Origin: Chloroflexia bacterium
Lineage (GTDB): Bacteria > Chloroflexota > Chloroflexia > QHBQ01
Length of the DNA stretch: 29,594 nucleotides
Reading direction: 5' to 3'
NCBI GenBank assembly: GCA_038239995.1
Contig: JBBSEE010000001.1
Coordinates: forward strand, 1 to 29,594
Part shown: piece by piece, positions 24,255 to 29,435 of the stretch
Layout: each line of letters begins with the position of its first letter
Position numbering within the stretch: position 1 is the first letter of the stretch
Notes under the pieces: generated by a model
Database searches by the model: none
What the model saw: the letters and a program-made list of their open reading frames with translations, nothing else
Told to the model about the DNA's origin: nothing
Made by a program: the position numbers and the translations under genes

Positions 24255-27200
24255 TTAGCTGCACCCGCTGGTCGCGCCGCAGCTATCGCACTTCAGGCAG
24301 GTGCCGTTACGCACCATGGTGAAGCAGGCGCATTCGGGGCAGGCTTCACCCTCGTAGCCCTTGATGCGGGCCTCGGCCAGTTGCACATCTTGGATTGACT
24401 GGGTGGAGGTATGGCCGGAGCGGGGCATGGCGTAGGCGACGGTACTGAGCAGCGGGTTGACCTCGGCACTGGCGTGGCCGTTACCGTTACCGTTGCTGTG
24501 GTTGTGCAGTGGGTCCATGTGCAACGACGGGGTGGCTGCCGCTGGGCCTGCGTTAATCATAATCGCGGTTGATGGCTCAAGCTGGCGCACCGCGTCGGGG
24601 CGGTTCTCCTCGGCATCGGGCGGCAGGTGGGCGAGGTCGAAGCGGTCGAGGTAGGAGATTGCCAGTTCGCGGAACACGTAGTCAATCACCGAGGTGCCCA
24701 TCTTGATGTGGTCGTTGCCTTGCACCATACCGGAAGGCTCGAAGCGGGTGTAGACGAAGGCATCGACGTACTCCTCCAGCGGCACGCCGTATTGCAAGCC
24801 GAGGCTGATGGCTATCGCAAAACAGTTCATTAGGCTGCGGAAGGCCGCGCCCTCCTTGTGCATATCAATGAATATCTCGCCCAGCCGACCGTCGGCGTAC
24901 TCTCCAGTGCGTAGATACAGCTTGTGGCCGCCGATGCGGGCCTTCTGGGTGTAGCCGCCACGACGGTTGGGCAGGCGGTCGCGCTGGGCTGCCGCCCGCT
25001 GCAATTGTTCGGCGGCTAGCCCGGCCAGCGCGTAGGTTTGGGCTACAGGAGTGGCCGCGGCTAGCTCCTCCTCGTCCTCCTCCTCATCTGCGCCCATGCT
25101 GTTCAGCGGCTGGCTCAGTTTGGAGCCGTCGCGGTAGAGGGCCACCGCCTTGAGCATCAGCTTCCAGCTTTGCAGGTGGGCATCCTCGACCTCGGCGATG
25201 GTGGCATGGTTGGGCATATTGATGGTCTTGGAAATCGCCCCGCTGATGAACGGCTGGGCAGCGGCCATCATCATCAGGTGGCTCTGGGGGCTGAGGTAGC
25301 GCACCCCATTCTTGCCGCAGCGATTGGCGCAATCGAACACCGCCAGATGCGTAGCCTTGAGGTGGGGCGCACCCTCGACCGTCATCGTGCCACATACGTA
25401 GTCGTTGGCGGCGGCAATGTCCGCCTTGCTGAAGCCCAGCGCGGACAAGAGGCTGCCGCTGCTGAGTTGCGCGTCGCTGAGGCCTAGCGTGGTATGGCAG
25501 AACTCCTCCCCTAGCGACCAGACCGAGAAGGCGAAGTCAAGCTCGAAGGCGGCCCCCAGCCCGGCCTCGACCCGCGCCAACGCCGCATCATCGAAGCCAC
25601 GTTCCTTTAGGGTGTCATGGTTGATGGCCGGTGCGCCCTTCAGGGTGGCGGTGCCAGTGGCGTAGCGCACGATGTCCTCGATTTGCGCCGTACTGTAGCC
25701 CAGTCGCCGCAACGCCGGGGGGACGCTCTGGTTGATAATCTTGAAGTAGCCGCCCCCCGCCAGTTTCTTGAACTTGACGAGAGCGAAGTCGGGTTCGATG
25801 CCGGTAGTGTCGCAATCCATTACTAGGCCGATAGTACCAGTCGGGGCTAGTACACTGACCTGTGCGTTGCGGTAGCCGTGCTGCTCACCCTTTGCTAGCG
25901 CATCGTCCCACGCTTGCTTGGCGGCGGCCAGCAAATCTGCCGGGCATTGTGCCGGGTCAATCCCCAGCGGGGTCACACTCAGGCCCTCGTAATCGGCGGT
26001 GGGGGAACTATAGGCGGCGCGGCGGTGGTTGCGGATGACGCGCAGCATCGGCTCTTTGTTCGCCTCGTAGCGGCTGAAGGGGCCAAGTTCGCCCGCGATT
26101 TCCGCCGAGGTCGCGTAGGCCACGCCGGTGAGGATGCTGGTCAACGCCCCACACAGGGCGATGCCGCGCGGCGAGTCGTATGGTACGCCCAATTGCATCA
26201 GCAACGCGCCGAGGTTGGCATAGCCGAGGCCGAGGGTGCGGTAATCGTAGCTGCGCTGGGCAATCTCCTTGGCAGGATACTGGGCCATCAGCACGCTAAT
26301 CTCCAGCACGGTGGTCCACAGGCGGATGACGTGTTCGTAGCGGGCGATGTCTACAGTCGCAGCTTGATTTTCGCCCATCATTGCCACTAGATTAACGCTT
26401 GCCAGATTACAAGCAGTATCATCTAGGAACATATATTCAGAGCATGGATTACTAGCATTTATAGGACCATCGTTGGCGCAGGTGTGCCACTCGTTGATGG
26501 TGGTGTCGAACTGAAGGCCGGGGTCGGCGGAGGCCCACGCGGCAGCGGCAATCTTCTCCCACAAGCTGCGGGCGGGCATCGTCTTGCTCACCTTGCCGTC
26601 GGTACGGCGGGTTAGCTGCCAATCCTTGCCCTGCTCCACCGCTTGGAGGAAGGCGTTGCTGACCCGCACGCTGTTGTTCGAGTTCTGCCCCGCTACGGTT
26701 AGATAGGCCTCGCTGTCCCAGTCCACGTTGTAGGTGGGGAAGTCGAAGCTATGGCCCTGCGTGGCGGCCTGCAAGGCCCGCTGTATCATCCCATCGGGGA
26801 CACCACTGCGCCTCGCCTCGCGCACCGCCCGCTTGTGTTCGCTCATCAACCCATCGCGTTCGCCGTTCAACCCCGCCGCGTTCGCCGCGCGGTAGGTGGC
26901 GATTACCTTGTCAAGCTGCTGGCGGCAGAGGCGGCTCCCCGCCACCAGCGCGGCCACCTTCTGCTCCTCGACTACCTTCCAGTTGATGAAGTTCTCGACG
27001 TCGGGGTGGTCAACGTTGACGATGACCATCTTGGCGGCGCGGCGAGTAGTGCCGCCCGACTTGATCGCCCCCGCGGCGCGGTCGCCGATACGCAGGAAGC
27101 TAATCAGCCCGCTGGATTTACCGCCACCGGAGAGCGGCTCATTCTCGCCGCGCAGGGCACTGAAATTGCTGCCCGTGTTGTGGATAGCGACCAAGCCAGT

Positions 27201-29285
27201 CTCGCCCGCAAGGTAGTTCGAGCTATTTGCCACCGTCATGTCATAGAAGTCGGGATTATCGGTGCATGGCTGCACCGAGGTGACGAAGGCCAGTGAACCG
27301 GCTACGCGGGTAAGAAACTCGGTGTCCGGCTCTGGTGCTTCCAGCAGGGCGGTGGCCCGTTCCAGCTTCAGGGGGTTAATCAGCCCGTTGTAATGGAGGC
27401 GGCCCAAGTGCAGGGTTTCGCCACCCACTGGCAGCTTCAGCCAATCACCTGCCCGATGCTGACCAAAGAGTTGCTCGGCCCACGCCTGCGACAGGGGCAT
27501 ACAGAACTTGCGCTCGTGGGGGGGTTGATAACCCAGCAGCTTTTCGCGACGGGAGGGGTGGGTAAGGTGATGGGCGAGGGCGGCACGTTGCTCCGGGCCA
27601 GCCGAGCGGTGCAGCACCGTGACCTTGACATGGTCCTTGCCCGCTATGTAGCCACCACCGATACCGTACAGCGAGGCTAGCACCGCCACATCTTTAGCAA
27701 ACTCGCGGCTAACCGTCGAGTAGATCGCCCGACCAGCGGCAAAATTGCCGTCTGAATCAATCAACCCTGCAAGGAAGGCAAGGGCAATCTCCCGCCCCCC
27801 TTCCCACACGAACGCGGGCATCCGTAGGGAGTAGGCTTTGCGCCCCGGCTGAGAGAGTTGGGCGAAGAAGGTAGTGACCTTGCGCCCCACGTAGCTGATG
27901 TGCTTGCCACGACTACCGCGCCCATCTTCTTGGATGGCCGAGCTTTCACCAAAGACCCGCGCGACAATCGCTTGCACCCGCTGTAGCGTCTCTTCCGTCT
28001 CATCGTGGAAGCGCAGCCGCAGGCCATCATACACGTAACGGCGGCCTTGCTTATTGGTGGTGGCGGGGCGAACCCGCCCCAAACTGCCATCCCCCATAAA
28101 ATACCCGCATAGCCATGCCAAATCTTCATCGATCGTGACTGTGTGAGGTTCGCGGTGGCCGAAGTAGGTAGTTTGATATTCAATCGTAGCGAGGCGGCTA
28201 GGGATCGCGGCGACCGCGGTTTGATTAGGCGCAAGCACGGCATCGCTGCGGCGTAGCTGGTCGGCACGGCGTTCGACAATCTGTTCGCCATCCCATACCA
28301 TGAAGGGGTGCCATGCGGATACAGTTGCCTTCGCCCCAGTGTCGAAGCTAACCGTGAGCTTGTCTTCAGACGATACATCGTATTGCCACACCTTCAACAC
28401 CCGGTCGAGGCTGTAGGCAGCGGTATCAGGGTCCATAGACAAGGTGAACACATCCGCATCTGCAACGTTGATATATTGCCCCCGGCCATCGAAGTCGTGA
28501 ATGGGGCGGCCCTCATCGCGGAAGCGGTTATACAGGTCGCGCAGCCGGACGAATCCCTGCCCCTGCACGTATACGCGGCTCTCGCCAGAGGTGCAGCCGC
28601 TGCCGTACTTGAATATACGTGCCTCCCGCACCCACAAGTCCATAATCCCGCCCTCGTTCACAAGGTCATCTTGGATTGACTGGATGAAGCAGGCGGAGGG
28701 TTGGGGGTGTTCGTAGGCCGAGGTGGAGCGCAGCAGTTCGCCCGTCTTGCCGTCGTTGTAGTAGTGGCCCTGCGCTGGGCCAGCGATGCCATAGGCCCAG
28801 TGCAGACCAGTGTTGAACCACTGCGGCGAGTTGGGAGCGGCATACTGCTTGGCGAGCATGAAGCACATCTCATCGTAGAAGGCCCGCGCATCATCCTCGC
28901 TGCTGAAGTAGCCGTGCTTCCAGCCCCAGTACGTCCAGCACCCCGCGAGGCGGTGGAACACTTGGCGGGAATCGGTCTCCGCGCTCTTGCGCTGGTCGGC
29001 GGGGAGGGCAGCCAGCTTGTCCTCATCCGGCTGGTTTCGCCACAGCCACGCCGGTACCCCCTTCTCGCGCATCGGCTTGAGCGCGGCGGCAATCCCTGCC
29101 TTGCGAAAATACTTTTGGGCAAGGATGTCGGTTGCCACCTGCGACCACGTATCCGGCACCATCACGTTCTCGGCAAGGAAGACGACGCTGCCGTCAGTGT
29201 TGCTGATTTTCGAGGTGCGCGGCACGAAGTTGATGCCAGCGTAGGGGTCTGCGCCCTTCTTGGTGAACAGGCGTTCAATTCTCAT
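24255..29285 (-). CDS. nrdJ: Class II (adenosylcobalamin-dependent) ribonucleotide reductase containing an intein
   Basis: [59 protein letters not shown]-terminal CPEC...CDSC...GCS. AAGGA SD before ATG 29285. Confidence 0.96.
27177..28595 (-). mobile_element. 473-aa intein with LAGLIDADG homing endonuclease in nrdJ
   Basis: KYGSG|CTSGESRV ... SAWHPF ... GYFMGDG ... LAGLIDSDG ... FYDMTV ... AIHN|TGSNFS. Removal restores FKYGSGTGSNFS. Confidence 0.94.
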
Positions 29286-29435
29286 GGCCGGTATTCCTTT
29301 CCACAATAAAGGTTGATAGTAGGGATGCGCCCGCACAGGGGCGCGATAATTAAAATCAGCGGCTACTGAGTTATGTAGCACCAGCCGCAACGCAGCTAGC
29401 CACCCCCATAAGATGGTGGGTGGCGGCAGTTTGGG

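Follow-up and report, generated by a model that had tools for sequence, protein, structure and literature searches.

Why should the codons over the active site of a ribonucleotide reductase (RNR) gene in a GC-rich bacterium abruptly end in A or T, when those on both sides end almost always in G or C? The question is raised by a window of 29,594 nucleotides, the whole stretch of DNA that was analysed, which forms positions 1 to 29,594 of contig JBBSEE010000001.1 of a Chloroflexia bacterium (GCA_038239995.1, referred to here as G000), a metagenome-assembled genome (MAG) of 1001 contigs that is 84% complete and has a GC content of 61%. The affected gene is nrdJ, and the explanation that we favor, at a probability of roughly 0.5, is that the patch is a multi-step co-conversion footprint of homing-endonuclease and intein traffic at a hotspot that is now empty. 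Two features define the problem.

24255 to 29390, minus strand: nrdJ, class II (adenosylcobalamin-dependent) RNR with one resident intein, from Pfam and translation
26352 to 26471, minus strand: the patch, 40 codons (residues 974 to 1013), 30 of them A/T-ending, with protein motifs intact, from codon counts, a genome scan and orthologue comparison

The patch lies in frame and spans both the thiyl-radical motif NPCSE and the motif DDTACNL. Our recount reproduced the figures of an earlier, sequence-only reading of this DNA: 30 of the 40 patch codons end in A or T, compared with 1 of the 16 codons before it and 1 of the 16 after it, and the conserved protein motif is intact, since NPCSEY (residues 981 to 986, the same in all relatives compared) and DDTACNL are both present in the translation. 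Among all 40-codon windows of nrdJ, the patch has the most A/T endings; the G/C share of third codon positions (GC3) is 0.76 over the gene as a whole, and the patch, at 0.25, stands out with sharp edges from a gene of about 0.8. Given its amino acids and the codon usage of the genome, built from about 827,000 codons, only 8.2 of the 40 codons are expected to end in A or T (Poisson-binomial P of 30 or more, 1.7e-14), and 81% of the degenerate codons do. A genome-wide scan found no other window with at least 24 A/T endings and clean G/C flanks (1/20 and 2/20) in a real domain; the remaining high-scoring windows had mixed flanks or implausible translations. There is no amino-acid change in the 28-codon core of the patch, so that the differences there are silent. 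The locus thus holds a short, mostly synonymous tract with defined ends, an observation that is confirmed as assembled and that rests on the assembly sequence.

One way to account for such a tract is functional codon choice, either a cluster of rare codons that, by slowing translation, gives the active-site finger loop time to fold, or a signal at the level of RNA or DNA. A/T endings are indeed rare in this genome, and the patch and a weaker mini-patch described below both fall on catalytic motifs. We nevertheless consider this explanation highly improbable, because the codon choice is not conserved by position: when each gene was scored against its own per-amino-acid codon usage, 174 nrdJ orthologues gave a median z of -0.3 at the patch locus, compared with 10.1 in G000, and the 130 GC-rich orthologues average 5.1 A/T endings where 4.8 are expected. 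A conserved rare-codon cluster was ruled out on this ground, and the neighboring, equally conserved motif TINEWHTC has 0 A/T endings. Over the patch itself, scans for promoter-like sites, RNA structure (z = 0.22) and Rfam families were all negative. The same 174 genes answer the concern, voiced with the sequence-only reading, that nrdJ might carry A/T-rich codons here in general; it does not.

The exceptions among the orthologues are confined almost entirely to one order. The next-highest scores belong to G031 (4.6), G001 (4.5), G034 (3.5, a value from unpublished data) and G030 (3.1), nearly all of the same order as G000, and enriched nrdJ genes concentrate in this Chloroflexota order, which is the one that carries the inteins. 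Many of its members have only 0 to 4 A/T endings in 40 at this place. In the pooled order-wide profile the patch locus is merely one of several peaks of about 1.5-fold, and the extreme signal is therefore specific to the genus. Three unpublished genomes (G007, G015 and G034) are among the roughly 27 to 29 order genomes in our tables and pooled counts; no key claim depends on them.

In this order, inteins insert into this stretch of nrdJ. Comparison of DNA and protein with 40 relatives, in which split matches break inside the patch and the insertion points were placed by translation, revealed three insertion points within 12 codons, all inside the patch, all empty in G000 and all occupied in relatives of the same order.

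26442 to 26447, minus strand: empty site A, CCA|TGC (NP|C), directly before the thiyl-radical Cys; occupied in G026
between 26442 and 26441, minus strand: empty site A', NPC|S, one codon downstream of site A; occupied in G013 and in allele C354 of G035
26409 to 26414, minus strand: empty site B, GCT|TGT (TA|C in DDTACNL); occupied in five alleles

Site A holds a LAGLIDADG intein of 355 residues in G026, site A' an intein of about 447 residues with HNH and NUMOD3 domains in G013 and G035 (C354), and site B a LAGLIDADG intein of about 403 to 425 residues in G009, G011, G032, G035 (C306) and G026. Judging by these domains, the patch encloses sites that are used by elements bearing putative homing endonucleases. 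The proposal of the sequence-only reading that the patch sits on an intein and homing-endonuclease hotspot is thereby borne out, including the presence in a relative of an intein at NP|C. This site is the most frequent intein site of RNRs, with the NrdJ-1 split intein one residue further on (Dassa et al. 2009, PMC2677866). The two insertion points of that hotspot, where contiguous inteins directly precede the thiyl-radical Cys, are the ones filled in G026, G013 and G035 (NP|C and NPC|S); in G000, by contrast, both are empty, and the order uses a third site, TA|C, 11 residues downstream. More widely, inserts in 97 multi-intein NrdJ proteins cluster at SAC|F, GSG|T, GGT|T, NPC|S (19), TAC|N (about 7) and PTGTI|GLVMD (9).

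Several alleles of this region are unusual in themselves. In G026 (contig C43), two LAGLIDADG inteins stand back to back, at NP|C and TA|C, with 11 extein residues between them, and 5 of 10 codons in that interval end in A or T. The G035 MAG (about 62% complete, 1% contamination) contains three versions of the nrdJ active site (C273, C306 and C354): an empty one, one occupied at TA|C (C306) and one occupied at NPC|S by the HNH intein (C354). They represent either one population that is polymorphic for the presence of inteins or several closely related strains in a single bin. A partial NrdJ of 1275 residues from a Nitrospira sp. MAG (NCBI) has the active-site region twice in near-identical form, with NPCSEY at residues 377 and 951, as a result of either a tandem duplication or an assembly artefact. 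In various genomes, many gene calls of 100 to 160 residues over the NPCSE region sit on long contigs (up to 6.8 Mb), which suggests that nrdJ is broken or split near its active site by fracture of the gene, frameshifts or unrecognized insertions.

The codons themselves tie the A/T endings to inteins in several ways. In the relatives, GC3 is 0.56 to 0.74 in inteins and 0.77 to 0.94 in exteins, and the extein codons that adjoin resident inteins are enriched in A/T endings in G013 (odds ratio 9.9, p = 1e-4) and G032 (4.8, p = 0.001) and marginally so in G035 (C306). Beside the HNH intein of G035 (C354), the 25 upstream codons all end in G or C and the downstream flank opens with an A/T cluster, an asymmetry that resembles classical co-conversion tracts (PMC3192709). 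The G000 patch shares two rare markers with alleles that have an intein at NP|C or NPC|S. At patch codon 16, the rare Leu codon YTA (CTA in G000) is found in 3 of 3 alleles with an intein at A or A' and in 2 of 27 without one, namely G000 and G030 (Fisher p = 0.0025, a significance that is overstated, as in our Fisher tests generally, because the relatives are not independent), and TGT at patch codon 21 is confined to G000 and the two HNH-intein alleles. G030 is a second, smaller island at an empty site, with 11 of 28 core codons A/T-ending between flanks of 1/30 and 3/30, and its 20-nt AT-type core is identical to that of G000. A further island in G000 lies at yet another empty intein site.

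25806 to 25865, minus strand: weaker A/T mini-patch (residues 1176 to 1195) straddling the empty site PTGTI|GLVMD (between 25830 and 25829), from codon windows

This mini-patch has 11 A/T endings in 20 codons where 4.1 are expected (z = 3.9), with 5/20 and 3/20 in its flanks. In the spliced extein of G000, which has 1,202 codons, the three 20-codon windows that rank highest are this mini-patch and both halves of the patch. Intein loci as defined from protein data have an excess of A/T wobble positions in G000 (permutation p = 0.006), and they retain it when the patch is left out (p = 0.012).

The congener G001 indicates that the tract has a history within the genus. It has 17 A/T endings in the 40 codons, with the same start and end as the patch of G000, and its A/T codons form a nested subset in which shared four-fold codons have the same bases (GCT, CCA, GCA and GTT). 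Where both genomes encode the same amino acid in the patch, G000 has an A/T and G001 a G/C ending at 13 codons and the reverse holds at 0, compared with 54 and 64 outside the patch, so that simple symmetric amelioration does not fit. The codon for Ser979 even belongs to different families, AGT in G000 and TCT in G001, which suggests allele replacement rather than drift. At 47 to 48 of 60 per bin, nucleotide identity between the two in the patch does not fall below that in other places, and distances to the outgroup G003 are symmetric. When the 13 sites were polarized by eye with G003 and G004, about 4 appeared to have been lost in G001 and about 6 gained in G000, and four of these gains (patch codons 16, 19, 20 and 21) adjoin site B. 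Together, these comparisons point to two layers or more, with a tract that the ancestor of the genus already had and a later change in G000.

Our results lead us to the following sequence of events. The inteins of NP|C, NPC|S and TA|C would supply endonucleases that cut intein-free nrdJ alleles, and the break would be repaired from an intein-bearing or otherwise different allele, with the flanking codons copied along; if the intein was later lost, or if repair proceeded without keeping it, only a synonymous haplotype would remain. The older layer would be an A/T-enriched tract with the boundaries still seen in G001, and the second layer would comprise the additional changes of G000 at codons 16 to 21 beside site B, which match the haplotype linked to the inteins at NP|C and NPC|S. 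We thus infer both an origin of the G000 tract by conversion and the former presence of an intein. The idea of a gene-conversion scar, as put forward from the sequence alone, survives in part: the hotspot and a conversion-type scar are supported, the AT-rich foreign donor that was part of it is not.

The closest precedent is the co-conversion tract of the homing group I intron in the cox1 gene of angiosperm mitochondria, where a rare intron-less gene keeps the full tract (PMC3192709). Like the patch, that tract is short and consists of synonymous third-position differences beside a homing site; it is asymmetric about the place of insertion, moves along with the element and can outlast it as a footprint. 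The nrdJ case differs in that the elements are inteins in a bacterial gene with three insertion points in 12 codons, and in that the tract is denser (30 of 40 codons as opposed to 1 to 9 diagnostic sites) and forms a compositional island whose link to a donor consists of a few shared markers. Haloarchaeal MCM inteins (PMC10643990) offer a second likeness, with several close sites in one essential gene, flanking codons that are co-converted at invasion, and empty alleles that differ in how readily they can be invaded. Resistance in MCM, however, arises because a changed residue, Pro after the site, prevents splicing, whereas the changes in nrdJ are all silent and resistance is only a candidate property (PMC10643990). 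An empty triple hotspot under a dense island of silent changes is a natural substrate for two questions that are usually modelled: can co-conversion tracts in bacteria be lasting footprints of lost inteins, as with the plant cox1 intron, and are silent changes enough, by themselves, to shield an essential active-site sequence from homing endonucleases? Local islands of wobble composition in conserved motifs of GC-rich genomes could also be a cheap marker of past intein traffic.

The second of these questions leads to a rival origin, namely that the host recoded the wobble positions in place, without a donor, and so became immune to three homing endonucleases with overlapping recognition regions. 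Inteins are thought to persist by targeting residues that cannot change, which makes host immunity hard and requires that loss of the element be precise (PMC2814812). As such immunity would predict, the amino-acid sequence of the patch is vertical and only silent positions differ, three Leu codons all still belong to the CTN family, and no donor was found; against a GC3 background of about 0.85, moreover, any silent change at a two-fold codon is necessarily one to A or T. The empty sites of G000 have 9 + 9 mismatches in 2 x 36 nt to homing sites reconstructed from joined flanks, compared with 2 to 6 per site in most relatives; this fits reduced cleavage but also follows automatically from the wobble shift. 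A transition-partner test for an origin in place by C>T and G>A changes was uninformative, with 5 of 9 clear four-fold sites matching, as in AT-rich homologues (31/59). We regard recoding in place as unlikely, given that the tract extends 19 codons beyond site B and so exceeds the typical recognition site of 14 to 40 bp, that A/T endings at 81% of degenerate codons are directional and far more than escape should need, and that the order still contains many empty alleles of the G/C type. Moreover, with flank markers like those of occupied alleles, G000 should be a good target and not a poor one, which favors a scar over an escape allele. It seems quite doubtful, likewise, that the patch is a naturally evolved, purely synonymous immune allele, with nearly every wobble position recoded over the overlapping targets of three intein endonucleases, which would escape invasion where amino acids cannot change, in a population that may still be polymorphic for it.

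Could the tract instead have been imported from a truly AT-rich foreign genome, such as a phage or a distant lineage, as the sequence-only reading had it? Its sharp edges and its GC3 of 0.25 in a gene of 0.8 are what an import would leave, and phage nrdJ genes and inteins are common (PMC3653736). Nevertheless, searches of the patch against genomes and viromes found no donor. Neither 2.9 million viral contigs nor 185,579 species genomes contained a match to a 57-nt AT-type signature in IUPAC code, and 241 million metagenome records gave 0 matches to the exact 30-mer that lies between sites A and B. Apart from G000 itself, the proteins closest to the patch region among 5.8 billion were 88% identical (G001-like) and then 77%; a protein search with a 91-residue fragment gave nothing above 78%, and protein-guided retrieval of at least 160 loci gave, among the matches listed, no relative closer than about 74%. 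The nearest DNA for the patch core is that of G001 (82%), the variable tail of the patch is common only to this congener, and the G001 patch has the same boundaries. AT-rich homologues approach the patch core by composition only, their flanks being about 55% identical. At the three Leu positions, G000 has CTA, CTG and CTA; AT-rich homologues have TTR at 10/13, 5/13 and 6/13 and almost never CTA. An import of this kind is accordingly very unlikely.

Several observations weigh against our preferred explanation, a conversion footprint of intein traffic. The donor allele that it calls for is absent from the viral, genome and metagenome collections scanned, and the Fisher tests behind the flank markers count for less than their p values, as said above. 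Enrichment of A/T endings in the flanks is absent in G009 and G011, both of which bear inteins, and the other intein loci of G000 (SAC|F, the occupied site 1 and GGT|T) show no A/T excess. The GC3 of the G000 patch, 0.25, is far below that of any intein or intein flank seen (0.56 to 0.74). The upstream flanks of inteins at A and A' are of the G/C type, yet the patch reaches 9 codons upstream. Over patch codons 11 to 25, G000 is identical by eye to the intein-linked flank of G013 at 8 codons and to G001 at 9; compared with the flanks of alleles occupied at A or A', the patch thus has two markers in common, an overall identity no higher than that to G001 and an upstream half without a match. Finally, the G000 version of the patch is unverified, with no confirmation from reads or another independent source. 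In Logan contigs of public runs, the only run with identical flanks was X1, a soil metagenome, and its two exact contigs (0 mismatches, depth about 8.5 to 9) end at 26362 and 26484, the edges of the patch. When the patch was queried by itself, its 31-mers were found in no indexed run, one unrelated run having 2 of 15 words.

These last results bear on the possibility that the patch is an artefact of assembly or strain mixture, in which 120 bases were bridged from a different allele or organism that co-occurs with G000, and patch and flanks are never together on one molecule. The ends of the X1 contigs, the lack of any run with patch words, the 1001 contigs of the MAG and the absence elsewhere of an identical protein or fragment all fit such a bridge, and the share of words found in X1, 0.60, is the fraction that lies outside the patch. 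An artefact is nonetheless quite improbable. The patch keeps the reading frame, its junctions are perfect and it has genus-specific residues that only G001 shares, and the independent G001 assembly has its own 17 of 40 A/T endings with the same boundaries and nested codons; this attenuated patch and the genus-specific residues make a chimera across organisms unlikely. No alternative copy is present in the G000 assembly, and only an allele of the same population, with identical flanks, could have served for a k-mer bridge. At 26484, the X1 contig stops next to a motif common to many organisms in the sample (depth 373), which can by itself break de Bruijn contigs, and the break at 26362 could reflect population polymorphism, low coverage or a bridging error. 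It is also possible that contigs end at both edges because the population is polymorphic exactly over the patch.

The rest of the gene adds a resident intein at a different position.

27177 to 28595, minus strand: resident LAGLIDADG intein, 473 residues, at site 1 (KYGSG|C...HN|TGSNF), from Pfam, boundaries and composition

Pfam finds Intein_splicing, LAGLIDADG_3 and a PI-PfuI endonuclease subdomain in this intein, and its GC3 is 0.69, compared with about 0.83 in the exteins. It is missing from G001, G003 and G004, members of the same family as G000; its presence here, like the three allele states in G035, counts in favor of intein traffic at this gene. Its nearest homologues, every one of them in NrdJ, are at most 65% identical, and we dropped it as a pointer to a shared donor for this reason. 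Neither a second nrdJ copy nor stray intein fragments were found in the G000 assembly, and G001 to G004 have single copies or none.

The domains Ribonuc_red_lgC (PF02867, 3.7e-118), Ribonuc_red_2_N (PF08471, 6e-44) and TSCPD (1.4e-10) identify the nrdJ product, which, with both the RNR barrel and the class II N-terminal domain present, is predicted to be a class II (B12-dependent) NrdJ. On the opposite strand, a terminator-like hairpin with a T-rich run (plus strand, 26344 to 26369, hairpin 26344 to 26360) lies antisense to nrdJ at the 3' edge of the patch and is probably due to chance (1 found, 0.6 expected). The longest open reading frame of nrdJ (24255 to 29390, minus strand) runs 35 codons upstream of the called ATG at 29285 (29286 to 29390), and 21 of its initial 40 codons, these 35 and the next 5, end in A or T; the upstream extension is therefore probably an untranslated leader.

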